DNA of 35,399 nt from Psammoneis japonica. Lineage: Eukaryota. Location: positions 1 to 35,399 of the forward strand of contig QPGO01000375.1 in assembly GCA_008632985.1 (NCBI GenBank), given 5' to 3'. Below, piece by piece: positions 821 through 35,399 of this stretch. Under the pieces are notes generated by a model. It had not been told where the DNA came from. It worked only from the letters and a program-made list of their open reading frames with translations, and ran no database searches. Position 1 is the stretch's first letter, and the number at the start of each line of letters is the position of its first letter. The translations under genes and the position numbers were made by a program.

Positions 821-1565
821 GAACTGTGACTCAGAAATCACAATCCAGCACCCAAGGCAAGAACCACAGAAAAACTGCACAATTGCACCAGGTTAATGCT
901 GGGAGATGGCATTTTCCAGATTGCTGGAATCTCACCCACTTCTGGATCTCAATGCAAAATTTGCACAGAACTATGCATGGCCACCAGATGTGATTTCCAT
1001 TGCCAGAATGTGATTGCTGATTGCTGATTGGAGGTCAAGACGTTCACTTCTGGGGTGTGATTCCCAGATTGCTGATTGGCTGAGATGGATGATGATGTTG
1101 TGCAATGGATGATGATGACAAGATGAAATGTTGCAAGTCATGAAAACATGTTGCTCAATTGGCACCAACCACATGGCTTGCAGTGGTGCACACTGCACAA
1201 GTGGAACATTGACAATGACTTCATGGCAGTGTTTCTGTGTGCACATGACAGACAATGCCATGTGTGAATGGCACTGCACAATGAGACAGGATGACACACC
1301 ATCATCTGTTGCTTGCTGTCATGAAGCTGTTGCAGTCAAATGTAAAAGGACAAACATGGGCAACCTCAACTTTTTGCACCCACACAATTTTCACAGTGAA
1401 ACAGAATTTTTGATTGCAGAAAATGCCAAATCAAACAAAACCATGTCTCCATTTAATTTCTCTGTTTAAATGCATGAAGAGCTTTGTCAGCTGATTCTTT
1501 CTCATGACTCCCCCAGAAGACAAAACAAATGTAAAACAAACAACTGACCTGGACCACATGGATTC

Positions 1566-2532
1566 TGTATGGAAACCATTCAGTCACTGGCCGGCCGACG
1601 CGGAATTTGTACGGGAATGACCGAAGCGTCAGCTGAGGTCATCGGAACCGGTCACGAAGCCGGCAGGCTGAGTGCCGGTTCTCCCGTACAAATTCCACGG
1701 AGGCNNNNNNNNNNNNNNNNNNNNNNNNNNNNNNNNNNNNNNNNNNNNNNNNNNNNNNNNNNNNNNNNNNNNNNNNNNNNNNNNNNNNNNNNNNNNNNNN
1801 NNNNNNNNNNNNNNNNNNGAGGACTGACGCAACACAGAGACCAACAAAACACATTAATGTGGATCTCTATCGAGTGATCCTGGTGATGTATTCTTGGCAT
1901 AGGACCACTGGAAGACGCCATTGTCGACGGTGACGGCCTCGTCGATCGCGGTGTCGTTTCGTGGGTTTGCTTTTTCATCTACATTGTTAATGCATATAGA
2001 TGTACATTCATTTTAATTAGGCGGTTCCGTTCACATGTTTGTTCATTTATATTTGCTTTTTCCCAGTCAGCATCGGTTTGTGCAAATCAAACACGATTGA
2101 ACTCCGCGACGTCACATGCCAGCGACCTACACAACATTGTCGTAGCCAGCATGTGCAGGAACCAACGTTGGGTCGAGAGCACTTTTTGAATTTCAATGCC
2201 AGACAACATGTAGATTTCTACGAGCCAGAAATGACCCTCCAGTGCCATGTCATGTGCATCGCTCACTCCGGGAACGCGATGGCCGGTTCCCGGGAACGCT
2301 GGTATATGCCCACGTGGCTCTACGTCGGGAATTGGCCGAATTTGTCAAAAATCGCCTGCGCTGGTTCCGACGGTTGGAATGAGACAAAATTCAAATATTG
2401 GTTCCCACCCGTGTACCAAGTTCCCACGTAGCTTCTACACAACCGCCAAAATGGTCTCGGTCACAATGACTCCAGTTTCCATGCACAGTCTACACAGCGC
2501 TACGAAGAACAATGTCAGTCCGATAACTGACA
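1566..2532 (+). mobile_element. Young solo LTR, copy 2 (~970 bp, TGT...ACA) with 5-bp TSD
   Basis: Starts TGTatgg (1566) and ends aactgACA (2532). Flanked by gattc (1561-1565) and ggttc (2533-2537). The paralogous empty site reads catg-ggttc-cttgtgcaagcaccc (ggttc at 3580-3584). True polarity is unknown. Confidence 0.8.
1705..1818. other. Assembly gap (114 N) inside the solo LTR
   Basis: Run of N. Its flanks match the reverse complement of 682-691 and 558-568, so it corresponds to ~569-681 of copy 1. Confidence 0.95.
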
Positions 2533-3779
2533 GGTTCCATGTGCAAGCACCCAGTGTCTCATCTCACTCTGGTCCTTCACCTTGGTGCAACCCTCAGGGT
2601 TGGGAGCCCCCCCTTGGGTTTGGCCTCAGTGTGGCCGGGTTGCTCATGGAATTTCTTGCAATCACCAGCATGCTCCATGCTTGGCAGTGATTGCTCAGCA
2701 AATTCCTGGTTCCGGACATGGGACAAGGTTCTTCTTCCTTGTTAAAATCCATGCAGTCCAGGTCAGCCTTTTGTTTTGTGCAGCAATCAACAAAAGTGTG
2801 CAACAAAAAGTCATTGCAATTTTCAGCCATGTGAAACCCACACAGTGATCAAAGCATGTTCTCCACCGGTGGGTGGCAACCACTTCATCATGATCCAGCA
2901 CCCAGTCAAGAACCACAGAACAATCATGCAATCACACTGGGTCAATGCCCGGAGGTGGCATTTTCCAGATTACTGGAATTTCACCTGCTGTTGGATCTGA
3001 GTACAAAATTTGTGCACAGAACCATGCTCAGCTGCTGAATGTGACATCAGTTGCTGCCAGGATGTGATTGCCAATCGCTGGTTGGTTGAGATGTTTGCTG
3101 CCAGGAAGTGATTCCCTGATTGCTGGTTGGTTAAGATGGATGATGACACCATGTGGTGGATGACACTGACAAGATAAAACATTGTGAGTCATGAAGACAT
3201 TGCTCACTTGGCCCAACAATGTGGCTTGCAGTGGTGCACACCACACCTGTGGAACAACAACAGTGATGGAATGGTGATTCCATGTGAATCATTGACAATG
3301 CCATGTGCAAACATTGCCACACAACACAACAGGATGACGCATTGTTTTCTGTTGCCTGCAGTCATGAAGCCATTGCAGTTAAATGCAACTTTTTCCACAC
3401 CCATGCAATTTCCACAATGAAATGGAACTTTGATTGTAGAAAATGCCAAATCAAACAAAAACATGTTTCTGTTTAATTTCTCTGTTCAAATGCACAAAAA
3501 GCTTTGTCAACCAATTCTTTCTCTCTTCCCCACTCCACAAAACACACATGCAAAACAAATGACTGACCTGGGCTGCATGGGTTCCTTGTGCAAGCACCCA
3601 GTGTCCCATCTCAATTTGGTCTTACTCTTGGGGTTGGGGCCCCCCTTGGGTTCAGCCTTGGAACCACCAGATTGGTTGCAGAATTTGTCACAATCACTGC
3701 CAGCATGCTCTGCACTTGATGGTGATCACTCCACAAATTCCTGATTCTGGATGCATGACAGGGCACTTGCTTGTCAATG

Positions 3780-5330
3780 CCAGTTGCCCACCATTTGGGG
3801 GACACACTGCTCCATTGAAACAGACACAAAGACAAACACCTTGGCAACAAACCAGAGATGTGGGACACCAGTGGGCTTGGTTTGCGGGGCAACTTGGCCA
3901 TTCATGTGAAATTTAGGCATGCAGCATTGTTTTCACACACAACAGATGCAGGTGAGACATTCTGCTTAACAGGCAAGTCAGCGGCACCTTGGTCAGTGAG
4001 CTCAAAAGCTTTGGAGTGAATTGCAGTGGGATTGCAGTGGTCAGACTTTCCAAGTGAGTGGCAGTTGAGCTCCTTGAGCACTTGACAAACAGGAATGTCA
4101 TGCACAGCCTGCAACAATGTGACATGTTCCACTTCCACAGTCTTCAACCCCACAAGAGTCTGCAGCTTGGTCACCTGAACAAGTGGACAGCTGCCACAAT
4201 GGATGGGGTGTCCAGTCCTGGACTTAACTGAAACTGGGTCTTGCCCATCTTCCACACCAAACCAGCCCATGAAGTCAGAATTGACATGACAATCAACTCA
4301 ATGGTCTTGTGCAAGCTTAAGAATGAGACCTTCAGTGGCAGTGGTGTTGAGGTGCCTGAGTGTCTGCCTCACTGCAGCAGTGTGGGATGCTTGGGGTGCA
4401 AATAAAAAATGTGCATTTAGCCAGCTGTGTGATGACAGATGCAACAACATTCCAACAACAGAACAACAATCACAGGGTTCATGGAAAGGCAGGCCATCCA
4501 TGTTGGCACCAACAGGCACAGGCAGTGCCAGAGCAGAAGCCCTGTTGCAATCCTTCATTTGGGGGCAGTGTGCAGGACCTTGCCAATTAAACCAGGTTGG
4601 GTTGGCAAACATCATCCTTGGAGTGCTTGTTGATCTTGATTTCAAAGAAGTCACTGATGTCTCCTTCATCCCAAGTTTTGAAATGCATGGCGATGCTCAT
4701 TGTCAGAGACTCCCAGCTTGTGAACCTCCTTTTCCAGACCTTTTGCTGACACACCAGTGAATGCTGTGTCATTGACATGCACATCACACATCATGCCTTC
4801 CTTAAAGTGCAGACATGGGTCTGAGCACTTGGGAGATTGCTCAAGGCCATGCAGTCCTTTCAAAAGCTTGAGTGCCACATGGAGTCTCAACCTCAGTGCA
4901 AACCCTTTTGGCCATGATGTGTGACATTCTTTGGTGATGCCAACTTGGCAAAAGGCTGCAGCACAGTCTGCTTGACCTGCAGTCCATCCCTCCTTCAACA
5001 CAGCCATGAGCATCAGTCAGATGCCAGGCCATTGCACTGCTGGCACACAAATCTCAAAACAAGAGCCAACTCCATTTTCTGTAAATCACCTTAGATGCAG
5101 AGCCGGGTCTTGTGCTTCAACAGCATTCCATCTGGTGGCATCTTGAGTTTGAAAGCCCACGTGCTGGGAAGCACACTCATCTTCAGCATGTGTTTGACTG
5201 GCTTCCAGGCTCATCACAGGATGAACAAGTTGACTTCAGTCTTCATTGCCTTGATCCACTCACCCACATCCAGACTCTTCAGAGCAATGTGTGGCAAAGG
5301 CATGTCAGGGTAGATTTTGGATTTTCTTGC
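3780..5330 (-). pseudogene. pol: Copia A reverse transcriptase + RNase H remnant
   Basis: VLPSTWAFKLK; LKLLKGLHGLEQSP (cf. KSLYGLKQSP); SDPCLH..DVHVND (cf. YVDD, ~4766-4777); SVVGMLLHLSS; VDCHVNSDF..GVEDGQDPVSVKSRTG; VCENNAACL. Confidence 0.9.
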
Positions 5331-5929
5331 TTGCCACATGTGCCACAGGATCCCCAATGTTGCGTGTGCCAGTGTCCAAATCCATCTCAAGAGTGGCCAG
5401 ATGTGCCAGCTGAGCTTTGTGTCCAATCCACACCTCTGCTTCATCAAAAGAGCTGAGACACACTTCATCTGTCATTTTCAAAGAATGGAGCTGTCCTTTG
5501 GTCAGGAGGTGCTTTGACTGGAGGTGGTGTGGCTGTTGTTGGCTCAGGAGGTGCTTCATGTGGTGGAAGTTTGTCACTTTCTTGAGGCAGAGGTGGCTGA
5601 ATTGGCACAGACTCTAAAGAATCCACTGCTTCTTGAGTCCCAGGTGTGACTGGAGATGCAGCTTGAGTTGGCTCTTGAGTTGTGAGCATGACTCAATTCA
5701 GTGCATCATTGCAAAAAGCAAGTGGATCTTTCCCAGATGTCAGTGGAGTTGGTTGGAAGTCGTCATGAGTGTGAGTCTCTCTGGCCATTTCTTGCTCCTT
5801 GCTTTGGCATTCAGGAGGAGAGAGCCACTCATCTCACAGGTGGACCATCTGGCCCTTCTCCAGAGAGATGCAAATTGACTGCTTGAGACACAGTTGCTCC
5901 CAGTGATTGGGTGGATCTGTCTCCCTCTC

Positions 5930-6900
5930 AATCAACATGGCACAGCAGTGAACAGATTGTCAAGAAACAAATGATGCTTGGGAGCAACCTTTCCAGTTTG
6001 AAGATTGAGTGCAAGGGGTGTCTCACTTAAATGGGTCACACTCAAACCAATGAAAAGAGCATGGTGAGTGCAGGGTTGCCATTGAGGTGACTTCTTCCTG
6101 GATGCAAAAACCAGGTCAAGGATGTGTGCCAGTTGCACCCACATGACAATGTCTCTCAAGCAATGATGAGGCACTGTGGGGCTGGTGAAAATTTCCACTG
6201 GGCAATGCCCTTGAACATTGAGGGTGACATTGCAGATGTGCTTGGCACAAGATGCAGCCATGGGCCATGGTGAGCTGTTGACCCCTCCCTCCCAACGATT
6301 GATGCATGGAGGAGCACCCCTCTTGCCATGTTGGAGACCAATCAGATGCTGTGTTCAGCTGCTCCATTCTGATGGTGGGCATCATTGGCGCCACAGAACA
6401 TAAGACATTTCTTCTGCTTTCTTGTCTGCTGGATAAAAGAGTTGGCCTTGAATGTGCCACTGCTGGCAAGAAATTTTTGACAACCCCATGGTCCAGAGCA
6501 TGTTTCTCAAAGGCTTGTTTTTCTCAAATCATCTCTGCAGCGGAGAAACTGAGAGTTGACTCACCATGTGAGTTAAAGGTTGGGCCTGAGAGGCATGACT
6601 TAATGTGATCAATGCTGACAGCCTGACCCAGTTGTAAATGGTCAGCTTGAAGGGCCCTGTCACATTCAAGGACTGCCCTCTTGTGGTTGAAACTAAGAGA
6701 TCTTCTTTGACCTGTGCTTCACATCTTGGATGGTCACACTTTGCCACTGCTTGAACCAATTCAAAAAGAAAGGAAATGTGCAGAGAAGGGCTTGCACATG
6801 ACCAAAGTTCAAATGACCAAAACAGGCATGCATGTCTCAGAAAAGCTTCTGACTCACCCTCAGATTTCGATTCTCTGTCATGGATGCAACAGGCAAGTGG
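5930..6900 (-). pseudogene. pol: Copia A integrase remnant
   Basis: ENRNLRVSQK (pre-integrase); HHQNGAAEHSI..VSNMARGVLLHAS (cf. HHQNGVAERAI); WPMAA; LALNLQTGKVAPKHHLFLDNLF (cf. TGxISPQYHVVFDD). Confidence 0.88.
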
Positions 6901-6999
6901 CTTGATGGGCAATGCGGCATGCCCAACTTCCCTGCACCATCAACAAAAGTGTGCTGGTCACTTTCATGCTTTCTGTAGACTTGCTTCTCTTTGACAAAG

Positions 7000-7620
7000 A
7001 GGCGCTGTGGTGAAAACAGATGTTTGTGGGTGCCAGGGATGCAGTGTGCCATGGAACTCAGTTGTTGGATGTCAGCACAGCTCGGCATCATGAAGATCCA
7101 TGTGGTTGGTCTGGCATCTTGGATGGTCAAACTGTTGGATGTCAAGCTGCAGCTGCTGCTTGGGGATGACAACAGTCCAGTGAAAACTCATCCTTGTCAC
7201 AGGTGACAGCCAATGTGGCACTGGCATCCATGATGACATTCCAGAGACTCATTGGACATGTCAATTGGTGCCTGCAAATTGGGTGCCAGCAGCTTGGCAC
7301 TGCAAACAACTGGTCTAACATGTGCTTCTTCCAATGAAAAAAATGGGATCATGAAATTGAGCAGTGTCCATGATGTGACAAGGGATGCAGAGCTCCTCAA
7401 ACTGGAAGAAATCAGAGCTGAAGTCCTCAAGCACATCAAAGAAGTGCTTTTGCTCATCTGAAGGTTTGGTTCCTCACAAGTGTCAAAGAATGTTGATTTG
7501 TCAATCCAGTCTGACCATTCCACTGCTTCTGGGATCTTGCAGTGGCCGTGGAGATGCTTGCTCCCCTGTGCGTGCAATGGGTGGGGCATGACAAAGTCAA
7601 CAATTGAATGGACTTGGGAG
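7000..7620 (-). pseudogene. Copia A protease-region remnant
   Basis: SIVDF (cf. IVDSG) near 7600 and PGTHKHLFSPQRLF near 7010. The position between gag and integrase fits. Confidence 0.5.
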
Positions 7621-7989
7621 CCAGTTGTTGAAAGGTGGCACAGTGTGTTCAAAAATGGGCACTCAGGCTGTTGGTCCATGTGCACTGCTGACCACCAGAC
7701 CATGATGGCTGTGGACAGCACCATCCATGATGCCAGAAAGCCATGGAAGGTGGGCACTCTGCTCTGGGAATGTGGAGTGCCAGGAATGCAAGGCACATGT
7801 GCAAAACAAACACACAAGAACATTCCCAAAAGACAACCACAAGCCAAAACACAGAGAGTTTGGCTCATTCCAAAATTGATCGATGCAAAGAGGTCTTGTC
7901 TTCATCACACTCATGACAATTGTCCACACCAAGGTCTTCTGGATTACAAAGTCAAAGCCATGGTGCCAACACTTGGCAGCAAGTCAGGT

Positions 7990-9330
7990 GGGAGTGTGAA
8001 AGAACTCATGTGGATGCTTGACAGAATGCAGCTTCAAGACCAGAAACAACTCAATGGCTGGGGGGTCGTTTTCAAATGCAGAGAAGGTGTTGGAGCATTC
8101 ATGGAAGTTGTGGTCATCTTTGGGAGTGATTGTCTTAACCACGATTGGAGACACCACTGAATCCACAACTTGGCAAGTGTTTGGTGAGCTTGATTTGATG
8201 CAATTCTCCTTGAAACTAATTTCCTTGTTGCTCTCCCTCTTGGCCGAAGGTGCAGGAGTGACCATTGCTGTCACAGTTGCAGTGGCAGCAAGAAAACTTG
8301 GGTCATCCATGGCATCCGCAGCTGCACACCCCACACCCGTGTGTGCCAACTTGTGTGGGTCAGACTCCTTGGCACAAGGCTCCTTGGCAGTCTGAGCCAG
8401 TGGGCCCACAGGTGTGCCACTGTTGGGATCCATGACTTGAGACAGTTGACCAGCTGGTTCTTCCTTTGCAGGGTGCTTGAAGTCATCCTTGTGCTCCACC
8501 TCAGAGCGGTGTGGGGTCATCAGCAGACTTGGGATCCAGATTAGCATCCTTCCCCAACACTTCTTGGTGCTCTCCAGATTTTCAGATGATGACAGGTTGC
8601 CCTCAGGAAGTTTTGAGACCAAAGCCAGCCACTCCCTGTTTTTGATGTGCTCATTGTGTTGCTCTTGGATCCACACAACAACACTGATCAGTCCCAGGTC
8701 ATCACAGTCACTGCATGACTTGATTTCAGCAGGGTCCTTGAGCCCACACTTGTGCTCCATCTTCTACATGTCATCAAGCTTGTTGTGAGTGAGCCAATGG
8801 AAATGTGCAGAGGATGTCTTGGAGATCTCATGAAGTGTCTTGGAGCCCATGTTTGCCAGCAGTGTGCAGTCGGTCTGCATGATCTTCACAATGCAAAGAG
8901 CTTGGGCAGTGAAGTTGGTGCAGTCCTTGTCAGGGCAGATGTCCAAAGCAAGGTCTTCTAGATTCTTCTCAGCCACATCAACATCAGCTGGAGCACTGGT
9001 GTTGCAAGCATCAAGTGCCATCACGAACAGTGCTGATCTTGGGCAGTCTTCAAGTCCTTGAAGTGGTTGAACCTGGTCTCAATTTTCTCTCAAAAAGTGA
9101 TTGTGTTTCTAGAGCAAACCAGAAGCTGAGAGAAGCCAACATTGTTGAGCTCGCAATGTCATCATGGCATGCATCATCACTGGTGGTGTTCCAGGTCTCA
9201 TGCTCAATCTTGAGGTCACTCATGGGAAACTCATGCAGATGGTCAAAAAGACAGATGACTTTGCCACCAGCAAAGAAAAAATCTGAGTCATTTGGGTTGA
9301 TGTCTGTCATGGTCATGTCAGAGGGAGGCT
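7990..9330 (-). pseudogene. gag: Copia A gag remnant
   Basis: ALDACNTS..LEDLALDICPDKDCTNFTAQALCIVKIMQ..MEHKCGLKDP..WLALVSKLPEGN resembles diatom copia Gag as I recall it. It lies upstream of pol on the same strand. Confidence 0.7.
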
Positions 9331-9549
9331 CTTCCAAAGACAAGCCAGATGGAGTGGAGCCACCAGGTTTCTTGCATGCTGGAGAAAGAGTGGACTCTTG
9401 GTCCTGCAGAACAAAGTTTTCCTGCATGATGTCCTGGAATTGAGCCACGAGACAAGCAAGCTGTGGTGCTCCTGTTGCAAGCTGGTGACAGATTTTTGAT
9501 GTTGCCCCTCCAACAAAGTCAAGCATTTTTCTTGATCTGCTTGCAGACA

Positions 9550-10860
9550 AAGAATTTCTTGTTTTGGATCAGCCAATTCATTGGATGGGAGCTTTTGATT
9601 GGGAAAACCAATCATGGGAGGAACAGATCCAGCCAGGAAATTGAGTGCTTCAGTGAATGTGAGAAAGGGTTGAACACCCACTTGCTTTGGCACTGGTGGA
9701 GGCTGTTCAGATTCATCTGGAGGGGGGAGGAGGAACATTGGAACCATCCTGAGAAATGTCAGATGAGGCAAAGGAGACCCAACCGCAAATGCCAGCCAAG
9801 GTGACACAGTCAGTTGTTTCCAAGACTTCATCAGAAGCTCCTTGAATCAAGGGATGAGGATGTCCAGCAGCCAGCAACAAGTCTTTTGTGGAGAGCTTGG
9901 TTTACAAGGATGCTTTGACAAGAAGTGCTGTGCTTCCATTTGGATGGAACGATGTCCAAGACACCATCAATCTGACTGATGGGAGCACCAAGGCAAGAAT
10001 TTATCATCTCAGGACAGTCAATCAATGGAGTGATGCATGTCTTCTTTTGAGTGGCATGTTGGCTGAGCACGGCCTTGTGACATTTGTCCGGATGAGTGCA
10101 ATGCCAGCAAGAGAGAATGAGAAATTGAGGATGATCCTTAAGAACATCCAAAAAAGCTTTGATGACTTCTTTGGCCTTGTCATGAGAAGTCTTGACAGAG
10201 CAAAACTTTGTGCACAGGTCATTGTCCTTTGGAGAGGTGACTTGATGAGGGACAAGATAGATTGGCAGTTTTGCATCATGATGGAGAGAAACAACAGGAG
10301 CCTGAAGATGATGGAAAGCCAAATTAGCAGAGTGTCATTTCAGAAGATTGCCAGCAAGCTGAGCAATGCCCACAACATTTGCAACTGTCTCTTCCCATTG
10401 CATTGGTGCACATTGATGAGTGCCACCCATGCAGTGCATGATGAAGTGTTGAGAACAAGTTAAACCAGAAGTCCATTCCACCATGTTGTTCTCTGGGAGA
10501 ATCTTGCCACAATTGGTGCAAATGGTCACCTCATTGCTCAGAGGGTCCTGAGAAGCTTTCTGCTGCAAGTGTTGAGAATCATCGAGTGGCCTGTGGCAAA
10601 CACCACAGATGCACCAGGGTCATTGGATGCATGCTTGAAATGCAGAGCAATCTCTTGTGTTTCTTTTGAGGAGGACAAACCAGAGCCAGCTCTGGGAGGA
10701 GTGGGAGGAGCTTTGTCCTTGTCATTGGGGAGATCAGGTTGAGGATCACTGGTGGGGCGAGCCTGCGGTGGCAGAGGGGTCATCATGGTGACAAAAGCTT
10801 GGCACAAAAAGCATGCAGAATTCCACATGGAAATCGTTGATGTGCAGCTGCACAAAAAAG
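9550..10860 (-). pseudogene. Degenerate TE-like ORF, possibly ORF1 of a non-LTR element
   Basis: Protein-like frames 9831-10322 (..KEVIKAFLDVLKDHPQF..IDGVLDIVPSK..ILV) and 10335-10855 with Pro-rich linkers. The family assignment rests on resemblance only. Confidence 0.3.
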
Positions 10861-20435: not shown

Positions 20436-20458
20436 GATTGCTTCAGTGAGTCAAGGTG

Positions 20459-21800: not shown

Positions 21801-23036
21801 GCAATTGCCACAAAACAAATGGCAACAAAGGGACCCAATCAGCTGCAGCAGCCCATCCAAGAACTTTGCAGGCATCAAGCACAGAACCACTCAGCTGGCT
21901 GCTCTGTGTCTTTTGAGCCTGAGCTCTTCATCATTGTCACCTGGCCAGCATGTCACCAGGAATGCTTGGGAGATTCTCACCTTTTGTAGACAGTGTGTTG
22001 CCATCAGCTTTGACCCCAGGTTGTGCAAAAAATCTGCCTCACATCTGTGGACAAGTGGCACATGATGAGCTCAGGAACAAATGCAAAAGTGCTTTCTTGA
22101 ATTTGGGGAACATCAGATGGCACATCAGCCAGGGCTGAGGCAGAAGTTGAAGTTTGTTTTGTGACAAAAGATCACAACATCATTGAGCCACTGGTCAAGG
22201 TCAATCTTTTTGACAAAAGGCTCAGTGCAGAGAACACAGTGAACAATTTGGCCAACATGATCAAAAATTGCCACAGGGTTGGATCCAGTTAATTGGCAGT
22301 GAAGGACCTTCTAAATGAACTGGTCACTGAAGCAAGCTGTGTGTGTGCCACACAGATGCAGTGCTGATCAATGACAGCCTTTTTCCAATGTTGTCAGTGC
22401 TTTGAGATTTAACAACTGCACAAATCCATTGCCTCTGTGTGGCACTCTCACATTGCTGTTGCCCTTGTTGAGTGCAGAGTGACCAAGCATGCCAATGTCA
22501 AGGAAAACACTCAGCACAAGTGTCTTCTCTCTCAGTTGAAAAGCACTCTCAAGAACTTGCAGCAAAAGATCGTGCATGACATTTTTGAGGCTCGCATGTT
22601 TAAACACTGAGCAGCAAGTGCTGTCACTTGCTTGAGCACCAGCAGCAGGTGACAGCTGCAAATGTGTGCAACAGTGAGTTTCATTTCTGTCACTTGTCTC
22701 TAATTGCTTCTGTTGCAGCTGCCAGCTCATCATGAGTGCATTGCAACATTTTGGTGTGATGCCACATAGAGTCATCCTTGTGAATTCTACACAATTTTCA
22801 AACTGCATGTTTTTGCACATTGAGTGCAAAGTGAGCCCCAAAAACTCAAAAGCACCCCCGCACATTTAGCCAGTCCTTGTTGGTGGTCTGTTGTGATGGA
22901 CAGAGCCACAACTTAAAGGCTGCAACCACCATCTTTCTCGTGCAACTTGCTCGGCCTTTCCACTGCCCCCAACCAGGCAATGGCATCACGCACCCAATTT
23001 TTCAAATCTTTCATGCTTCCATGTGTTAGAGCATCA

Positions 23037-23366
23037 AGATCAAGGGGAACACAAGACACCTGGAAATGTTGAAGACAACATGTTGAAGCCCCTGACTTGG
23101 TGAATTTGGCGACTCTTTGCACCTGGAATTTCATCATCACCCATCTCACTCACCTTTCAGTTTGTCTCACTTTTTAGAGTGAATCATCTAGTTTGCAAGA
23201 GATTGCCTTTGTTGTCACTGGGCACGTGTTGTGATGCAAGTTTGAAGTTTGCAATGACACTTCCATTTAAACCACAGCCAACAGAGCAACCAGGGCAAGT
23301 GTGATGAGTGGCACCGGAAGCCTCACAGGATTCCTTTTTGGTCACATTGATTTGTTGGTTCAACAC
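23037..23366 (+). repeat. ~330-bp dispersed repeat, copy 1 (copy 2 at 33743-34070)
   Basis: Shared agatcaaggggaacacaaga.acctggaaatgttgaaga.aacatgttgaagcccctgac ... ggttcaacac. Confidence 0.9.
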
Positions 23367-23452
23367 TCATCCCAAAGAGTCAAAAGCACTTTGTTCAGTG
23401 CTGGCACAAACTGGCTTTTGTGCAGTCATCTGGTGTTAGATCCTTGCACAAC

Positions 23453-25260: not shown

Positions 25261-25499
25261 GCAAATCTGCAAAGAGTGGCCATGCATGGAACATGAGTCA
25301 TTTTTGGCACTCAGTGTTTGCATCGTGGTGGGTTTGTTGGGATGTTGCCAGTGCTTGGTTTTGGTTTGTTTGATGTTCACACACAATGACAGTTTGGCTT
25401 GGCTTGTCCTTGTGGTTGGCACAATGCTGCCCAATGGTGGCAGAGGGACAGACCAGCTCCATCATCCCAATGGGAACACCTGGCACCAATCTGTGAAGA

Positions 25500-26030
25500 G
25501 GGAATTTGTGATCCCCTGTTGAATGACAAGTTGCTCTCACAATGGCATTGCCAAACCTCAAGTCTTCATGGAACACACATCAAAAAAATTTCTGCAGAAG
25601 CAATGCTGACTGTGACCACTGCAAAATGCGTGCAGAAACATTTTGTGTTAACCTTCAAACAATGACAGCACATGAATGTTCAAAAGTTCTGGTGAAAACC
25701 ATCGGTTGTGGCACAACTCATCTGTTGCAATGAAAAAACATCGATTGCACAAAAACAATGACATTGCAACACTGACATGAGTCTTGTCAGTGTTGCAAAA
25801 CATCAAAGGTTGGACAAATCCATGCTTTTGGTGGTGAGAGCTCCTTTGCAAGTCAGAGACCATGCAAAAATGGCAAAAATGTCATCATTGTGCATGTTTT
25901 GGTTCACATGTGGCTGGAGCACATTTGCTGGCAGAAGTCTCTGATTGCATGAATCTGGGGCTGATTCCCATGATCATGATGGACCATGTTCCCGAAGTTG
26001 AGCAGAGCACAAAAAAAAAAGATCTGTGTT
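25500..26030 (+). pseudogene. pol: Copia C fragmentary integrase
   Basis: DHVPEVEQST at ~25982-26010 (cf. EHVPEAERNN). Heavily deleted. Confidence 0.5.
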
Positions 26031-26390
26031 TTAAGTGCTGTCACTCCTTTGCCAGCCAGGCTGGTGCCGGCTGACCCTCACCCCCAGCACACAGTTAATT
26101 GCAGCAGGGGCTTGCGTGGGATCAGCTGGAATGGCATCACCAGAAGGTGACACCCCACCAAGACAACTGAAAAGGAATGATTCACACCAGGGACTTGTTG
26201 CATGCTTGTTGATGATAGCTGCAGAAGGAACACCACTGCTGCAACAGACAATTGAATTCAGACAGGCTTTTAAAATAGTCCACAAAAGGAGCCTTGAAGG
26301 CAAGACCACACAGGAAACGAGAATCCATGGAATCGCACGGAATGTGTGCGCGACTCCGTCGCGAAAAGCCTCAAAACGGAATATGAATAA

Positions 26391-26743
26391 CCCTGCTTAT
26401 GCACACGAACCACCTGGTGGTCCGTGTGCATTTTTGGGTGCACACGAACCACCTGGTGGTTCGTGTGCACCCTACGCAAAATGCTGCGTAGATTTGTACC
26501 GAATTAAATCTGAATGCCTACATCTGCAGCAGGCTCTACGTGAAAACGCACTCGAAACAGTGTCCACCGAGCCGGCAGTCATGTGCCGGAACGTCGTGAA
26601 AAGTATTTTATGTCTGAGAAAGAGTTCGTCAGGGCCGGCGAACAACACCCCTCTACGATGCGACTGGTATAAAATGTACGTAAATGCACAGGAACCAGCA
26701 TGTGGTTCGTGTGCAAATTAGAGCTCGTGAAAAATAAGCAGGG
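26391..26743. mobile_element. piggyBac-like MITE (353 bp) with ATAA TSD
   Basis: Perfect 10-bp TIR CCCTGCTTAT / ATAAGCAGGG. ATAA on both sides (26387-90, 26744-47). Internal palindromes. Confidence 0.8.
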
Positions 26744-27233
26744 ATAACACGGTGCAAAACGAAAAAAGCCTCATCAAAATCCATATCACATTCCGATGTA
26801 TGTGCTCATTCCGTACCCAAGACGCAATTTGCATATTACGTTTCACCATTTTGTTTGTTAGAAAGAGGCCATTTATTTTAAATTCCATTTGCTGTTCCTT
26901 TTACTACATTCCGTTTGTGATTCCTTTCGCTCAACCAATGACACGGAATGCAATGGCTTCACTTTCTGTGTTGTGGTCGGAATGTGGCATGTTATCTCTA
27001 GAGCTTGTGATATGGAATACGTTGCAGAATCAAGTGAAATTCTAAAATAGGATTATTGTGCTGCTGCATTTCTATTGCACAGAAGAACTCCTGCTCCGCC
27101 CACACTGGTTCTCTGCCTGCATTTGCACGACCGATCACTTTGCTGCACCACTCAGCCGAATCTCAGAACGATGCATTCCTTCTTTTGATTATCTTGGGTG
27201 CCCAATGGATGACAAGGGGCACTTCAACCTTTC

Positions 27234-27526
27234 CTAAACATGAGCAACATGTGACAAAGTTAAAAGTGAGCAACGCGTTCAATGTGACAGAAAAAGCAAA
27301 ATGAAGCTTGCACTTACGGGCCGTTGATGGATGCAGCTGTCCAGACGTCTCTTTTGCCAAAAACTAGAGCGGTCGATGATACGGTGCCACTCTCTCAGCA
27401 GTAGAGCAGCCGCACTCGGAACCAGAACCCTCTGGACTCTGGAAACAAACCCCAACAGCAAAACGAGAGAAGAAAATGTGAGTGCAAGCGACCTTTGAAG
27501 TGCTGCACAATCACATCATAACTTAC
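27234..27526 (-). other. Two candidate GT-AG introns (27439-27526, 27234-27317) around a 121-nt exon
   Basis: Both begin GTAAGT, are 88 and 84 nt long, contain a CTCAC branch-like motif and a pyrimidine tract, and end ttcCAG / ttTAG. Confidence 0.5.
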
Positions 27527-28595
27527 CATCGAGTGTGCTGTAATTGTCACAAATCATACCACTCACTCATCCTATTGTTCTTCCCATTGTTTGCCGTTGT
27601 TGATTCAGATGCGCTCTGCCGCTGGCTGTGTTGCGTGTTTTTTATGAGAGCGAACGAGAAGAAGTGCGAGAAGATGTGGCTGCGATGCGAATCATCCTCT
27701 CCTCTGGTATAAATCGTCGTACCTTCTACAGAGCAATCAAAGTCACGTAGAATTCAACGACGTCTTTCCACGTACTGTTAAATAAATTAGCACGTGGTCA
27801 TTAAATGTTTTCTTCTTTGTTTTCGATGTAATTACTTCACAACATGTTGTATGATTTGAATTGTTTATTTTAAAAGTCCTTAATTTGTTAATAACATATT
27901 GTAATATGAAAACAATAATAAAATGTACAATCCTTTTAGGATTCTCATTCCAATGTTAATTAAATATTTTAACCGTCATTATTGTACTATCTTCTTTACT
28001 GCGCAACGAGTTAAAATAAAAATAAGGATATGGATATCCTACATAACATTTTCCACGATCGAAGACGACAACAACATACATGCCATGACGACAATGCGCG
28101 GCCTTACAGCATTACAGCATCAAACATCTCACCGTCATTCTTGATGCTGGTCGTGAATCATCACAGAGGGACGAATAGAGAGCATTAAATAATAGAGTAG
28201 TGACATTAGCCAATGTGGACAATGTTCGTTGCAATTTTTTGCCTCAACACATGCTCTGTGCCAACAAATGGCACCTCGTTGAAAATGGAATCCGTTGGCC
28301 TCAGTCTGTGCACGGAATGAAGTGGTCGTTCCAGTTTCAAGTTCATATTCCGCATGAAAACGGAATGCACTTGTCTTGGTGATTGGAATGGAATATGACC
28401 ATCGTGTTCCGATTGCTGACACTTCCATCTGGAACATGAGGGCACATTCCTTAGAAAAGTCCAAAACGGAGTGCGAAAAAGTCCTCATTTTTTATGGAAC
28501 AAACAAATGGAATAAGGAGAAAAAGCACACATTCTGTGCAATTCCGTGGATTCTCGTTTCCTGTGTAGCAGGTCATCGGAGAAAATGTTCATGGT

Positions 28596-29075
28596 ACACA
28601 GAAACAATTCTGGGTCTTGCACAGAAAAGCCAATGGCAGCAGCAAACGGATGACAATTAAATGGCACCACAGGATGACTTGTGTTCTTGCTGAAAAGGGC
28701 CACAACAGAAGCAGCACATTCACCACAAAGAGTGAAGTGCTTGATTGCATGGCAGAGAAGAGAAGTGGGGTTGAAGACCAATTCGCAAGGACAAAAGTAG
28801 TCCGGAGAAGTGACACGTAGACATTCAGTGGCAACACACAGAAACAACACCAGATCTTGCACAGAAAAGCCAATGGGAGCAGCAAATGGACAACAATCAA
28901 GTGACTCTGAAGGACAACCGACATTCTTGCTGAAAAGGGCCACAACAGAAGTGGCACTTGCACCACAAAGAGTGAAGGACTTGATTGCATGGCAAGGAAA
29001 AAGAAGTGGCATTAAAGACTGACTGGCAAGGACAAAAAAGCAGACTGGGGAAGTGACATGTAGATCATCAGCAGC
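28596..29075. repeat. Tandem duplication, 2 x 240 bp
   Basis: gaaacaa at 28601 and 28841. tcttgcacagaaaagccaatgg and ttcttgctgaaaagggccacaacagaag recur at exactly +240. Confidence 0.92.
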
Positions 29076-29529
29076 ATCTGTGGATCCACACAGAATTTGC
29101 ACTAGAACCTGTGTGGAAAATTTTCTGAGACAACAGAAAATTATGAGAAACAACAACCAGCATGCGAGCCAACTGGCCACAACACTCGTCGTTTTCCACT
29201 GATGAACTTTGCTCATCATGCTGCAACAAGGATGTGCCATTGGCAAATGTGGACAGAATGGGCTTGTTGGAGCCAAATCAACACCATCTGAAAAGGGCAA
29301 CATCAGTGAAAGAAGGTGCATAGAAACCTGCGTAGAAGCTGAGGGCATGCAGCTGATGTTGAAAAAGTGAGCAGAGCACACAGACCACAAAGGAGCAAAC
29401 TCGAGCTGCCACACACCATGTTCCACACAAAATGACACCAAAGCTGATGCACAAGCACACTGAAATTAAGAACAATGTCATGTCAAATGTGCACCCATAA
29501 AAGGAAGGGCTTTCTGACACTCGCAGCCC

Positions 29530-30250
29530 ACACAACATCACACAACAAAGGAGCCTCAATCATGACAAACACTTCCAGCTCAGGTTTGGGGAATTTGCAA
29601 TTTCTCATGTCGAGACTGGCCCAATGAACACCATGGACACACATGGTGTTGCACCATGAACCCACACATGGGCAAGTCATTGAATCCCTGCAAGTGCACC
29701 TCCATGCCCCTGACTGACATGCATGTGCAGGCAGTCCAGAAGATGGCCATTGGACAAGGCATCAAAGAATTTAAATTTGTGGGAAAATGCAGAAACAACA
29801 ATCTGCATGATGCTGATTGGACTGCAGGAGTGGACAACAACAAAAGCAACAACAATGAAAGTGACAGTGACAAAAATGGTGTTTACAGCACATGCCTGTG
29901 ACCTTGCTTTGATCTGCCCAAGGGTGGACACTGCACCATGAACCCACACATGGGCAAGCCACTGAATTCCTGCAAGTGCACCTCCATCCATGCCCCTGAC
30001 TGACAAGCATGTGCAGGCAGTCCAGAAGATGGCCATTGGACAAGAAGGCATCAAATGATTTAAATGCATGGGAAAATGCAGAGACAATCTGTGTGATGCT
30101 GGTTGGACTGCAAGAGCAGACAAGAACAAAAGCAACAGCCATGAAAGTGATGGCAACAAAAGCAACAGTGACAAAAGCGACAAAGAAGATGAATGCAAGG
30201 ATGATGATGATGACACTGGCCACATGACCAAGTCCATCGATGATGATTGT
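29530..30250 (+). pseudogene. pol: Copia C integrase C-terminal region with internal ~280-bp duplication
   Basis: LNHDKHFQLRFGEF; MPLTDMHVQAVQKMAIGQGIKEFKF..HDADWTAGVD. 29634-29877 is repeated at 29924-30175. Confidence 0.8.
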
Positions 30251-30639
30251 GAAGACAGCAGACTCAGATGATGAGTGTAAAGAAGCTGATGAGCAGATTC
30301 CAGATGACAAAAGTCCAGCTGGCAAAAGAAGGTCCAGTCCCAAGCAACAGCATGACAACCAAGAAACAGAAGAAGAAGACTGCAGAAGTCAAGAAAACAA
30401 AGATTGCCAAGACAATGAGGAACAAGAAAGAGCTGCAGAACCACAAGACAATGACCAACCTGATGAAGACAACAAATGGGAAGGAGAAAGACCAGTGGAA
30501 GAGGCAAGTGGCATGCCTGGCAGAGCAACCAGGAGTGGCACACAATGCAGTGCATCCTTCAACATGAAATCAAGCAATCACAGAGAAAAGAAAGTTCAAC
30601 TTGCAAGAGTGGCAAACACCAAGGAAGTGGAACAAGAGC

Positions 30640-31500
30640 AAAACAAGCTTGAGCACTGCCATCATTTAAGAACAAAGGTGAGTCCCAATCCAGAGGACAA
30701 CATTGAGTGCAATGTGGAAACAGCGATGGTGCAGGCACACTGCATGTGTGAGATTGGCAATTGACTCTGATCAGGTGTGGGCATTTCATTTGCCCAACAA
30801 CATTTGCTGCACAAAGGCCTCAAAGCATTTGGCCAGAAGGGACATGATGCTTTAGAGAAAGAGATGAAAAACAACTGCATGACCGAGTGTGCTTTGCACC
30901 AGCATCAGTCAAGGATGTGACTCCGACTGAAAGGAGCAGCCATGGTGTTCCTGGCTGAAACACATGATGGTGGAATTAAAGGGCAATCAGTTTTACAATG
31001 GGGAACCAACCCAAGAATGGCTGGACAAAGATGAGTCTGCCAGCCCTGCAGTGTCCTTGGAAGGAACATTGGTGATGACAATTGTTGATGCACAATGTCA
31101 TGAGCACCGTTGCACTGAATGCATTTTTGTGCAAACAATGACACTGGAGCTTGAGGAAAGCAAAAACCAGATTGTGGCAAAGATTGCAGGTGTGTTGGTT
31201 GTGGGCATTGATCCCAACCTGTGCAGCCCACATGTGGTCCTGCAAAAGGGCAAGAGAGCCCTTTGTGTCCCAGCAATCAGAGCCATCTGCTGCATGGTGC
31301 AAGCAATTTTGCAAAAACTCAGATGAGACAGGGTTTTTAAGTTCAACTTGTGCAATCTGTGCATTGCCAATCAAACAGTTGATGGCAAGCAGCACACTGT
31401 CTGATTCCATGTGAACAACCTGATGCCAAGTCACAAGAACTCCAAAGTGAAAGACAAGTTTTTAAGCTGGTTAAACAAGATGTGTGGAAGCTATGGCAAA
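30640..31500 (+). pseudogene. pol: Copia C reverse transcriptase remnant
   Basis: SFAQQHLLHKGLKAFGQKG; NGEPTQEWLDKDESASPAVSLE; VDGKQHTV*FHVNNL (cf. FHVDDL, 31405-31422). Confidence 0.9.
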
Positions 31501-31939
31501 AACACCTCCTGAGCTTGCAACCATTGCTCCCACATCAATGACAGAGATCTGTTGTGAATTGCACACGGCACTCTGCCACATGTCCATGTGCACCTGAACA
31601 AGCTGCACACAGACACAACATGATTTGGACCCATTCTTTGAAAATCCAGATCACACCAAGCCCAAGGCAAACTTTGTGAACATTTTTCTTGATTGCCTCA
31701 TCAATCAAGCAATCCCACCTTGCACAGTGGACCCTTCCAGACTTGGGTGGCCAAGAGACTGTTCCTGCCCAAGAGAGGCCATGTGGATGTCTGCCCCACT
31801 GTCAAAGCATCATGTGTGTGGGTCAAGGGACATGTGATTGGAGATTGTGGGGAAAGCCAGTCCATTGTCTCAAGCACAGGAACTGGACATAAAATGAAGT
31901 CACCACACCAAGTGCAAAGGACCTCTGAGTTGTCAAGTG

Positions 31940-32390
31940 GCACATGGATGTGTCATTTGCAGCTCACCCTGATTTCAAGAGCTGTGCCTGAGGAATTGTG
32001 ACCACGGGTGATGGAGCAGTGCAGGCTGCATTGAAGTGCCAGAAGCTCAACACCCAAAGGAGCACAGGAGCTGAACTTGTTGGAGTCAATGACACAATGA
32101 CCATGATGCCATGGACAAAATTGTTCATGGAGCACCAAGGGTGGCTGATCAAGAGGAAGAACAGCATGACAAGAGTGCCACATTGCTGGAAAGCAATGGG
32201 TGCAAGAGTCCCAGCAAGTGGTGCAGAGCACTCGACATTTGGCATTTCTTTGTCACCGATTGGATCAAGAAGGGCAACCTAAGTTTGCAATGCTGTCCTG
32301 CTGATGACATGCCTGGAGACTTCATGACCAAGCCACCACAGGGCAAGAAGTTTTGAAAGTTTGAACAAGCTGTTGTGGGCAGTCAACTTC
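31940..32390 (+). pseudogene. pol: Copia C RNase H remnant
   Basis: DVSFAAHPDFKS; QKLNTQRSTGAELVGVND; WTKLFMEHQG; DKSATLLESNG; HFFVTD..GDFMTKPPQGKKF. Confidence 0.92.
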
Positions 32391-32604
32391 AAGCACAGTG
32401 GGAGTGTTTCCTGTTTGTGACATCAGACAAGAGTTCTGATGCATGTGGACGAACGATCCCTGAAACCCAGAAAAGGTGCTGAGCTTGATGGTTCAACCAG
32501 CTGCAATTTGTTTTCAGAATGAACAAACATTGACAATGGGTGGTGATGACTCATGTGAACTCTGCACATGGTGACCAAGGTGTGGCCATCAGACAGCCAG
32601 CTGG

Positions 32605-33792
32605 ATGACCAAGAAAGACTCACTGTTTTCGAGCCACCCAAAAATGCAAGAGATGACAGATGAAGATTGCAGCCAAGAAATGGAAGAGTTGAAGAGGTGG
32701 AATGACAGATGCCAGAAAATGCTGACTGTCAATCTGTGCCTGTGCCAAGACACCCTGGATCTGCAACAGGTGTTGGACTCCATCAAGGAGATGAAAACAG
32801 AAGACCCAAATTTGACAACACTTTCCCATTGGGGGGAGCCAGAGTCATTGGGCATGTGGCATGGTCTGTGGTTGGATGGATGCAAGTTGTTTGTGGAAGT
32901 GCACAAAGAGATGGCACAGAGGAGCTTTGAGACACCAGAGCACATGTCTGCCAATGAATTGATGTTCTCCATCTGTGATGATTGGAGAGGAACATCTGAA
33001 ATTGGGCACTGAGCCAATGGAGCTCACAAGACTGAAGGACATTGGCAAATTGTTTGAAGCTGAGCTTTGAGGCAAGGCATGGTGTGTCATCATCCACAAC
33101 AACATGGGAATGAGGAGTGCCTTGAAGATGGGTGCATTGCCAGATCATTGGGCAACCAGTTGCAATTGGCCCTGAGCAAGAGTGACACTCATGAAACCTG
33201 TGGAAAATCAAATGTTTGCTCAACTGCCTGTGGCATGGACAAGAATGGGGTGTGTGGCACCCTTGTGAAGCTCATCAAGAACCATGATCTTGATGTTGTC
33301 ATGACCCACCAAGGACTCATGAGGGATGATGATGGTGTCATCAATGACGTGCAGAAATTGGCATCATTCTTCCACCATGAGTTTTCACCTGCATGGAAAT
33401 TGCACAAATGGTTTTGCAGAGAAATGGAGTTCTTTGATTTGACTCCCAAAGCAATCAATGGTTGGATTGTGAATTTGATCAAGGATCATGACAGTGAAGA
33501 CAAGAAAGAGAAACTTTGTTGCAATTGTGTGGAACACTTTGTGAAGTGTGTTCATGACATCACACACTTGTTTGACAACATGATCAATTGCTCTGATGAT
33601 GGATGGCATCACAGCTTTTGCACCACCAATTTAAAGGATGACTTGGAAGAGGCGACCAAAGAATGTCATCTCTCAAGATCAGCTGGGATGAAACTGGCCA
33701 TGAGAACATTGTTGCAAGTGTCAGGAGTGTGTTGGATTGTTGAGATCAAGGGGAACACAAGAGACCTGGAAATGTTGAAGAGAACATGTTGA
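32605..33792 (+). pseudogene. Degenerate ORF of unknown family (~400 codons, frameshifted)
   Basis: Globular-looking frames 32605-33012 and 33067-33792. The C-terminus (IKGNTRDLEMLKRTC*) is repeated at ~23040. Confidence 0.45.
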
Positions 33793-34070
33793 AGCCCCTG
33801 ACGTGGATTTGGTGACTCTTTGCATTTGGAATTTCATTGTCACAGATCTCACTTGCCATTCAGTTCATCTCACTCTTTGGAGTGAATCATCTGGTTTGCA
33901 AGAGATTGCATTTGGCATTGCCAGGCACCCACTGCATTGTGAGTTTGAAGTTTGCATTGACAACTTCTGGGCAAACCACAGCCAACAGAGTGACCAGGGC
34001 AAGTGCAACAAGTGGAAAAGGAAGTCTTGTGGAATTCCCTTTTGGCAACATTAACTTGCTGGTTCAACAC
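33743..34070 (+). repeat. ~330-bp dispersed repeat, copy 2
   Basis: Direct repeat of 23037-23366. Confidence 0.9.
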
Positions 34071-35399
34071 CACACTCTGTCACATCTTTGCCCATGTGCA
34101 GTGTTGGCTGCCAATCCATCTCTGCTTCCCCCATCCCCTTCCTCATCTCTCAACTTGCCCACTCCCTGCAATGTGCCATGCATGGACCAGCTGCAGGCAA
34201 CAACACAAGCTCCCTCCCTTCTGTGCTTGCTCACTCTGCACCTGGGCCACCTCCTGCTGCCCCCTGCACCTTCACCAGGTCTTCCAACACTGCAGCACAG
34301 CTGCCATGCAGACTCTCGACCCTCCTCCACCCTCCCTCAAAGCCCTTGTGAAAACACACCCACTGCACAACCTCTCCCAGACCCCACACCATGCCCACCT
34401 CCAACGTCAACTAGAAACTCTCCAACAGCAAGGGCCATGGCACATCATCCTTGCACTCCCACCCCTCCTCTCTCCACTTGCAAGCCTCACTCTCCACTCC
34501 CTTGCCTGCTCACCACCCCAACAATGCTTGAACCCCAAACAGTTCCACCTCATGCTGCAACACAAGCTGCGACTTCCTGTTTTGCCCCACCAGCTTGAGC
34601 CCATCTCTTGCCCTTCTTGCGCTGGTGCCATCAACCCCTGCAGCGATTCATGCTTTCTGCTGCGGATCTCTTGGACACAAAACAACCATGTCCAATGCCA
34701 TCCATGATGGCCCATGCACTGCACTCCAGACCCTTGCTCCTCTCTCTGGCATTTGCACTGACTCCTCCGCCGTCCACTTGATGTCACCATCCCCAAACCT
34801 CCCACATTGCTGCTTGCTCCTGGCTTGCCTGCCCCAAGTCTCAACCCTCACACCAAGGCACACCACATGAGCACCAAAAGGAAGTTCAATGCTCACTGCC
34901 TTCTTTTCGGAGCCAACCAAGAACACCCCATTCCTGCTCCATCAGCTCCTGCCTGGACCACTGAATCCTTCTTTCAACATCCAGCTGCCCATGCTGCACA
35001 CGCCTGTGCCCAACTATCACCATCTGCTGCTCTCCCCGCTGCCACCACCACTTGGCAGAACACATCCACCGCACACTTTGGCCTGACCCACCACACTTCT
35101 GCTCCATCACAATGGGGCCTTCAAAGCCCAAGCCTTGTGATCACCAAATTGCTTGCCAACCAACTAACCTGATGCTCCGCCAAAACTACAATCCCAACTC
35201 TCCAACCCCAATCTGAAACCCATCCCTTTTGCTCCGCATCTGCTCCCCCCCCCGCACCACTGGGTGACGTTGCACTTGAACTCCTCATGCGTTTGCACTG
35301 CCAGGTGGTTTCCCCTGACCAACAAACAGTGCCCTCTTTCAGCAGACCCTCACAGCTTTCTCACAACAAGGTCCTCCAGAGATCATCTCTTCACATTCG

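Follow-up and report, generated by a model that had tools for sequence, protein, structure and literature searches.

Parallel decay of CpG and TpA in the old transposons of a probable diatom, and a putative second mutagenic mark on silenced DNA

Introduction

The loss of CpG that follows deamination of 5-methylcytosine (5mC) is the classic example of how an epigenetic mark shapes the composition of a genome. In vertebrate and plant repeats, this decay affects a symmetric dinucleotide, yields TpG or CpA by transitions on either strand, depends on age, and proceeds autonomously at each site. Here, we analyze 35,399 nucleotides of eukaryotic repeat DNA (contig QPGO01000375.1, positions 1 to 35,399, of assembly GCA_008632985.1, listed under Psammoneis japonica; hereafter, the window), a stretch without any recognizable host gene that includes three decayed copia retrotransposons, designated elements A, B, and C. 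The CpG half of their decay looks exactly like the 5mC-driven kind, with CpG-to-TpG and CpG-to-CpA changes that are similarly frequent and rise with the age of the copy. Unlike 5mC-driven decay, however, the window also loses TpA alongside CpG, and in young copies no more slowly than CpG.

Several other described systems resemble the window in part. Fungal repeat-induced point mutation (RIP) likewise inactivates transposons by transitions alone and leaves a strong dinucleotide skew. It makes TpA from CpA, however, whereas the DNA of the window loses TpA, with TAY codons becoming CAY or TGY; moreover, RIP is triggered by duplication and proceeds in strand-coordinated bursts, whereas near-identical repeats in the window are almost intact and strand-coordinated runs are absent. 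RIP further depends on a C5 methyltransferase of the RID/Dim-2 type, active in the premeiotic phase. On account of its opposite effect on TpA and the sparing of near-identical multicopy elements, classical RIP was rejected. Editing of RNA by ADAR would be expected to produce A-to-G changes only on the transcribed strand and before integration, and error-prone synthesis by DNA polymerase eta (Pol-eta; WA to WG) to affect AA as well as TA and to yield many A:T transversions; neither pattern is found, as described below. In enterobacteria, a bias of very-short-patch repair depletes CTAG, a word containing TA that is lost to CA or TG as a side effect of a 5mC system. That process concerns one tetranucleotide in bacteria, whereas in the window CTAG is among the better survivors and CpG is lost too.

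A further precedent is provided by the thymine marks of dinoflagellates (5-hydroxymethyluracil, 5hmU) and kinetoplastids (base J), which are associated with TET/JBP thymine hydroxylases, are enriched on transposons, and take part in their silencing; an early-described preference for TpA would fit T-to-C decay of the kind seen here (PMC11572971, in its accessible portion). Dinoflagellates and Euglenozoa are the lineages from which such marks are known. No mutational decay of TpA is reported for the dinoflagellate mark in the accessible text. Our literature search, which left most subscription journals outside its reach, returned no description of joint CpG and TpA decay, or of TpA-to-CpA/TpG hypermutation in repeats. 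What is new in the window is a TpA loss that matches no described mutational process that we found; dinucleotide decay of transposons driven by a mark is of a known kind.

Results

Composition of the window

Over the whole window, the observed/expected ratios (o/e) of CG and TA were 0.231 and 0.142, those of TG and CA 1.832 and 1.715, and those of the 12 remaining dinucleotides between 0.92 and 1.16. This depletion was concentrated in approximately 30 kb of old DNA (824-1562, 2887-13604, 14684-26290, and 28851-35399), where CG o/e was 0.03-0.17, TA o/e 0.05-0.13, and TpG/CpA o/e 1.6-2.3. Conversely, values of CG 1.2 and TA 0.53-0.67 were obtained for the two inverted arms of a young element (1-823 and 1563-2387), and of CG 0.9 and TA 0.53 for an island (26291-28850) around an element with terminal inverted repeats (TIRs). 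Two segments, 2388-2886 and 13929-14683, were intermediate (CG 0.33-0.41, TA 0.19-0.25). The CG ratio thus falls as the divergence of the segment rises (from 1.2 to 0.9, to 0.33-0.41, and to 0.03-0.17), and the losses of CG and TA are similar in size in every segment. An earlier note on this DNA, made from its sequence, had claimed dual depletion of CG and TA, with saturation by TG and CA, in old transposon DNA, and had placed it at 821-35399. The segment ratios confirm the depletion itself and the point at which it begins (position 824, directly after the young arm), but not its continuity, as 1563-2387 and 26308-28566 are young and normal and the two segments named above are intermediate.

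Normal and depleted composition meet exactly at transposon ends within the one scaffold. All DNA outside the young insertions is depleted of CG and TA, including stretches that the searches placed in no class (the intermediate segments only partly). Five intact relatives from metagenomes, described in the next section, have DNA with CG o/e of 0.39-1.06 and TA o/e of 0.51-0.67; judged against these, it is the young elements that are ordinary in composition and the old DNA that is not.

With TAA and TAG erased, only TGA is left as a stop, and the window therefore contains many long spurious open reading frames (ORFs): measured from stop to stop, 84 ORFs reach at least 110 amino acids in 35 kb, on both strands and many of them overlapping. 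A Pfam search with 53 of these 84 gave a single match below threshold, to RVT_2 (E = 2.8e-4). Scans of the window for Rfam families and tRNAs detected none of either, and a tandem-repeat scan detected a single trivial array. Gene callers will make spurious proteins of such DNA, free of Tyr and rich in Cys, His, and Trp, and such proteins exist in public collections.

Direction of change at conserved codons

The earlier note had read the direction of change from five peptides, all of which are present: HVND (4768-4779, minus strand) in element A, EHVLLHTD (15445-15468, minus) and ALHGGK (15595-15612, minus) in element B, and CHCCGK (24805-24822, plus) and SFAQQH (30786-30803, plus) in element C. 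For element B, 62 full-length relatives (at least 1400 amino acids) were aligned, and columns at least 80% conserved (n = 715) were compared with the window. None of the 35 conserved Tyr residues was kept; 18 had become Cys, 16 His, and one Ala, the last arising from an overlapping frame. Arg was kept in only 12 of 58 columns, with Gln (11), His (10), Cys (9), stop (4), and Trp (3) in its place. Control residues were largely retained (Phe 30/34, Asn 30/31, His 13/14, Lys 31/36, and Trp 19/22), and Fisher tests separated Tyr from Phe (p = 1.5e-15) and Arg from Lys (p = 4e-10). Lowering the cutoff for Tyr to at least 60% gave 45 columns, again with none kept (22 Cys, 20 His, and one each of Thr, Trp, and Ala). 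The direction is thus TA to CA or TG, and CG to TG or CA, which upholds both the Tyr-to-His/Cys change and the CpG-type loss of Arg proposed earlier.

Outside TpA, T-to-C change was rare in element B (Phe to Leu or Ser, 1/34; Met to Thr, 0/17), as was AA-to-AG change (Lys to Arg, 4/36; Asn to Ser, 1/31). The other frequent replacements (Asp to Asn, Glu to Lys, Thr to Met, Ser to Leu, Ile to Thr or Val, and Val to Ile) are those that would be expected from decay of CG or TA across codon borders. These data bear on a process suggested in the earlier note, error-prone patch repair, in which T:G mismatches from 5mC deamination draw in mismatch repair and a Pol-eta-like polymerase that turns nearby WA into WG. 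TA is the preferred hotspot of Pol-eta, and such repair would couple the loss of TpA to CpG methylation; however, A:T transversions were absent (0 of the 45 Tyr columns had changed to Phe, Ser, Asn, or Asp), AA-to-AG change was rare, and there was no strand bias. We consider patch repair very unlikely.

Element C provides a weaker replicate of the Tyr result: in 12 columns with a Tyr majority among its phmmer relatives, it reads Cys in seven, His in two, and Trp and Phe in one each, with one Tyr kept. The relatives of element B gave no match to element A or C, and element A is for this reason polarized by HVND alone. A near-length protein search found no copy above 61% identity, and a scan of metagenomes with the window's decayed ORF found five intact relatives (52-63% identity), none bearing the signature. 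In sum, old transposons are unlike young ones in composition, Tyr is present in the intact relatives, and T-to-C change is concentrated at TpA, all three as the earlier note had required of its claim.

Decay in place on DNA

In eight pairs of paralogs within the window, 75 of 136 adjacent double differences consisted of CA aligned with TG. The same pairs also differed by TA against CA or TG (33 cases), CG against CA or TG (18), other transitions (86), and transversions (84). Each CA/TG doublet goes back to a single CG or TA in the ancestor, which turned into one product in the first copy and, independently, into the other product in the second. Such doublets were found between the long terminal repeats (LTRs) of element B (six, with two CG-type, one TA-type, and 13 other differences) and of element C (12, with four TA-type, one CG-type, and 27 other differences). 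As the LTRs of an element are identical at integration and these now differ largely by CA/TG doublets, the decay followed insertion and took place on DNA. The process also acts on DNA transposons with inverted ends, which again argues for the DNA level; the ends of the TIR element have three mismatches, all of them CG against TG or CA.

An old state is represented by the pair 837-1565 and 2887-3584, in which background divergence is approximately 9% and both CG and TA are saturated. This pair has 34 doublets and 13 single-type differences in 741 columns. On the assumption that each decayed site goes to TG or CA at random, we infer approximately 81 ancestral CG and TA sites (10.9% of columns), near the 11.9% of CG plus TA in the young arm, suggesting that the old copies began with normal composition.

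ADAR-like A-to-I editing of element RNA, fixed by reverse transcription, has in its favor that A-to-G change with a 5' U or T neighbor resembles the preference of ADAR. However, the two LTRs of an element came to differ through these very changes once it had integrated, elements bounded by inverted DNA ends have decayed as well, neither strand is favored, TAG is no preferred target (the surviving contexts include some that end in G), and the loss of CpG is left unexplained. RNA editing is accordingly exceedingly improbable, and the earlier note had been right to place the process on DNA. Selection against UpA and CpG in RNA (PMC3829696, as far as its accessible text goes) was also rejected, given that conserved codons are destroyed in dead copies and that LTRs have changed too.

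Rate, symmetry, and independence

The two arms of the young element, compared over 709 aligned bases, differed at 15 of 34 TA sites (44%), 7 of 58 CG sites (12%), and 7 of 525 other bases (1.3%), making a TA approximately 33 times and a CG approximately nine times as likely to differ as any other base. A similar picture came from contigs of a matching short-read run (see below), where the 40 variant places listed, of 132, comprised 16 of TA type, nine of CG type, five other transitions, and 10 transversions; TA- or CG-type changes thus made up 25 of the 30 transitions among those 40. Decay is still ongoing in copies that are 95-99% identical, many times faster than other substitutions.

The loss is symmetric between strands. 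Tyr columns became Cys and His in a ratio of 22:20 (18:16 at the stricter cutoff), in line with the earlier claim that both strands are hit, and Arg codons yielded 21 CAN (Gln, His) and 16 TGN (Cys, stop, Trp). The order of Cys and His along element B formed 23 runs where 21.95 were expected (z = 0.33), so that neighboring sites are not hit in strand-coordinated bursts. Together, the results show a decay that is directional, post-insertional, on DNA, transition-only, strand-symmetric, and site-independent.

The relation of decay to copy number was examined in the arms, whose summed run-contig depth (343 for the left arm, as against approximately 40 in old DNA) is about ten times that of their neighbors. 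Despite being multicopy and near-identical (95-99%), the arms have kept the near-normal ratios given above; decay scales with age, not with duplication. The earlier note had named the pattern a repeat-triggered "reverse-RIP" defense, a label that these observations do not support, as the youngest multicopy sequences are nearly untouched and strand-coordinated runs are absent. The insertion at 13929-14683 belongs to a very abundant family (summed contig depth approximately 4355, as against approximately 40-150 for its neighbors) but is half decayed already, and it may have been amplified from a source that had decayed before.

An enzymatic defense could be envisaged more broadly, with one or more deaminases directed to repeats or heterochromatin; inosine would be made from the A of TpA, and U or T from the C or 5mC of CpG. 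The cytidine/adenosine deaminase superfamily would supply candidates: the tRNA adenosine deaminase targets U-A within the anticodon loop, and a trypanosome ADAT2/3 is able to act on C in DNA. Such a defense would suit the speed of both decays relative to background, their similar size in each segment, their restriction to transitions, and the fact that every element seen has been inactivated; a weak trend toward A-to-G change in TAY, with 11 Cys and four His at Tyr codons of element B that follow a pyrimidine, points the same way. Against it, decay is weakest in the youngest multicopy sequences, the strands alternate at random where a processive single-strand deaminase should leave coordinated runs, and the 11:4 trend is neither significant nor seen in the arms (two events fit and five do not). 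In addition, we know of no eukaryotic DNA adenine deaminase of this kind. A deaminase defense is, in our estimation, unlikely, although a TpA-preferring adenine deaminase and the decay of a modified base, both raised in the earlier note, are each compatible with the data.

Sequence context of TpA loss

The TAs that are left in 29.9 kb of old DNA comprise four in RTAY, 58 in mixed, and 94 in YTAR contexts, while 3.9 kb of young DNA contains 50, 79, and 32, respectively (old versus young, chi-square p = 1.5e-16). By word, the old survivors are ATAT 0, ATAC/GTAT 2, and GTAC 2 for RTAY, and TTAA 47, CTAA/TTAG 39, and CTAG 8 for YTAR. The flanks make almost no difference to the loss of CG. The decay of TpA depends on context, being fastest in RTAY and slowest in YTAR, and the same trend is seen in the changed TAs of the arms (RTAY 8/15, mixed 7/15, YTAR 0/4). 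A strand-specific model (RTA/TAY) was tried and rejected in favor of a symmetric effect of the flanks, as the arms, by our own reading of the events, contradict the 11:4 trend.

As a separate observation, 23000-32000 has a strong skew of A over T (AT skew 0.23-0.34), and some of its 2-kb bins have more CA than TG (z down to -3.2). This skew may be explained by the strand composition of the element itself; a strand-asymmetric component of decay is the other possibility.

Assembly check and relatives in other assemblies

The matching short-read contigs (141 Mb, unique depth approximately 33) agree with the old DNA: seven of the eight long pieces listed have no other letters or gaps, and the eighth has 12 gap positions. 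These contigs derive from a run that may itself have been used to build the assembly, and their agreement is thus not independent support. Contigs of two further runs (X2 and X3) cover almost none of the window; among the runs searched, the first alone was listed as containing it, and no RNA run was.

A word-based search with the element C ORF gave no match, while phmmer found 118 relatives. Twenty of these were poor in Tyr (at most 0.8%, over at least 100 amino acids), and at seven Tyr columns conserved in 66 normal relatives they read 39 Cys, 31 His, and four Tyr in 92 cells; low Tyr follows from how the 20 were selected, but replacement by Cys and His does not. Ten of the 20, looked up by exact sequence, were singletons from small contigs of ENA, Logan, and JGI. 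With these sequences, the Tyr-to-Cys/His pattern is not the oddity of a single locus, and the Tyr-poor relatives may or may not share the window's organism.

It might be argued that the signature is an artifact of sequencing, base-calling, or assembly, such as misread modified bases or chemically converted DNA, and the possible shared origin of run and assembly leaves room for this. However, the old DNA is recovered in contigs at a depth of approximately 33, composition switches from normal to depleted precisely where transposons end within one scaffold, the same pattern occurs in the 20 proteins from other assemblies, and the old copies carry ordinary extra divergence, namely the 86 other transitions and 84 transversions noted above. 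There is accordingly little chance that the signature is artifactual.

Layout of the elements

Positions of the features are collected in Table 1. The TIR element is non-autonomous, as it has no ORF longer than 118 amino acids; near its left end (26400-26715), it holds three copies of a 31-34-nt palindrome (TGCACACGAACCACC...GGTGGTTCGTGTGCA). To its right within element C lie two pairs of adjoining direct repeats of approximately 230 bp, at 28596-29064 (79% identical) and 29650-30161 (86%), whose differences include seven and five CA/TG doublets, respectively. The inner end of the young arm (583-817) forms a long imperfect palindrome, judged by eye (583-603 with 797-817; 687-704 with 771-787). 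In the other arm, the gap of 114 Ns (1705-1818) falls exactly on this part, suggesting that a hairpin broke the short-read assembly.

Table 1. Features of the window, with positions counted from its first nucleotide.
Feature	Position	Strand	Remarks
Young repeated element, left inverted arm	1-823	+	CG o/e 1.2, TA o/e 0.67; near-normal dinucleotides
Old DNA between the arms; 1 CG and 6 TA left	824-1562		72% identity to old paralog 2887-3584
Same young element, right inverted arm	1563-2387	-	95-99% identical to 1-823; N gap 1705-1818
Old paralog of 837-1565, fully decayed	2887-3584		Paralog alignment, composition
Copia element A, reverse-transcriptase remnant (HVND for YVDD)	4666-5016	-	RVT_2, E = 2.8e-4, 21 bits against a cutoff of 31.6 bits
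Copia element B, whole, LTR to LTR	13215-20665	-	LTRs and gag-pol remnant
Element B 3' LTR	13215-13409	-	82% identical to 20478-20665
Element B gag-pol remnant; TA o/e 0.05, CG o/e 0.17	13605-18650	-	Source of the polarized codon test
Insertion within element B, intermediate decay (CG 0.41, TA 0.19)	13929-14683		High copy in run contigs
Element B 5' LTR	20478-20665	-	Pairs with 13215-13409
Copia element C, whole, LTR to LTR	23037-34070	+	LTR pair, zinc knuckle, reverse-transcriptase remnant
Element C 5' LTR	23037-23366	+	80% identical to 33743-34070
Element C gag zinc knuckle, reading CHCCGK	24805-24822	+	Translation
Young non-coding element with 42-nt TIRs, 2.26 kb, inside element C	26308-28566		Normal composition inside, depleted outside
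Element C reverse-transcriptase remnant	30786-32330	+	Tyr-column comparison with phmmer relatives
Element C 3' LTR	33743-34070	+	Pairs with 23037-23366

Discussion

We propose that a transposon copy, once inserted, falls silent, and that its DNA would then decay one site at a time at the two pyrimidine-purine steps that are self-complementary, CpG going to TpG or CpA and TpA to CpA or TpG, until both are nearly gone and TG and CA are saturated. The CpG half would be ordinary deamination of 5mC. The TpA half, which requires A:T-to-G:C change at a palindromic step on either strand, cannot for that reason come from 5mC chemistry, and may be a mutagenic side effect of a putative second symmetric modification of the same silenced DNA. 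The leading candidate for such a mark would be an oxidized thymine of the 5hmU or 5-formyluracil (5fU) type, made by a TET/JBP-like dioxygenase and pairing with G at replication; 5fU gives mainly T-to-C changes. The footprint would be no different if adenine were the modified or deaminated base. Active master copies would escape the marks, which would give young copies their normal starting composition, and mutation would be a by-product of silencing, not a defense triggered by duplication. To the general form of this proposal, with two symmetric marks on silenced insertions that are both mutagenic, 5mC at CpG and a putative modification directed to TpA, we assign a probability of roughly 0.4.

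A more specific form holds that a probable diatom, or a relative of one, carries the putative TpA mark as a heritable, symmetric, and mutagenic modification, preferring RTAY and lying with 5mCpG on silenced transposons, whose decay (A:T to G:C) would erase TpA faster than methylation erases CpG. We offer this version tentatively, as it is rather more doubtful than probable. Precedents for its chemistry exist. In dinoflagellates, 5hmU sits on repeats and silences transposons, and older work located it preferentially in TA and TC (PMC11572971, accessible text); variants of TET2 make hmU and fU by oxidizing T, an activity that is higher in the presence of mC (PMC11804724, accessible text).

A number of observations weigh against a thymine mark of this kind, or against its targeting to silenced transposons. 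Base-resolution mapping of 5hmU in Breviolum found no sequence motif (PMC11071213, accessible text), and the window has no excess of T-to-C change at TpC, the second context reported for 5hmU. Nothing ties the window to a dinoflagellate: a search of it for spliced-leader relics gave no match, where 0.96 would be expected by chance, and the copia relatives and nearest atlas clusters of its elements are, by sequence, diatom-type (Bacillariophyta). From diatoms, 5hmU has to our knowledge not been reported. As to context, the RTAY preference is not significant in the arms alone (8/15 versus 7/19, p = 0.49), and the YTAR survivors could in part be new TAs made from the abundant TG and CA. Finally, targeting to silenced transposons is deduced only from the normal composition of the young elements, in a window that holds no gene or unique neutral DNA, and recent arrival by horizontal transfer explains that composition equally well.

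This last point leads to an untargeted, genome-wide bias, under which all DNA would lose CpG and TpA through biased replication or repair, or through marks spread over the whole genome, and the young elements would be recent arrivals, for example by horizontal transfer. In keeping with such a bias, every base outside the young insertions lies in depleted DNA, unclassified stretches included, and the young elements share the composition of intact relatives in other organisms (CG 0.39-1.06, TA 0.51-0.67). It would demand, however, that three unrelated, non-coding young families (the arms, the TIR element, and, in part, the 13929-14683 insertion) all be recent invaders, since resident lineages should already be depleted at unconstrained sites. 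We regard a genome-wide bias as improbable, to much the same degree as a deaminase defense. Because the window is without gene or intron, it cannot separate these two explanations from the proposed pair of marks.

The practical consequences concern annotation. Spurious ORFs from such DNA enter protein databases, and family searches fail on decayed elements, as the single weak Pfam match among 53 ORFs illustrates. Organisms with the same decay may be recognized computationally by a repeat TpA o/e near 0.05 and by Tyr replaced with Cys or His in dead retroelements, and, if our proposal is true, the footprint would be readable in metagenomes as retroelement ORFs that are free of Tyr and rich in Cys and His. 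A decay of TpA as strong as that of CpG would imply an unrecognized A:T chemistry in silenced DNA, whether through modification of thymine or adenine or through a deaminase acting on adenine in DNA. If two marks are indeed at work, the second would add a new epigenetic-mutational axis that mirrors the decay of CpG.

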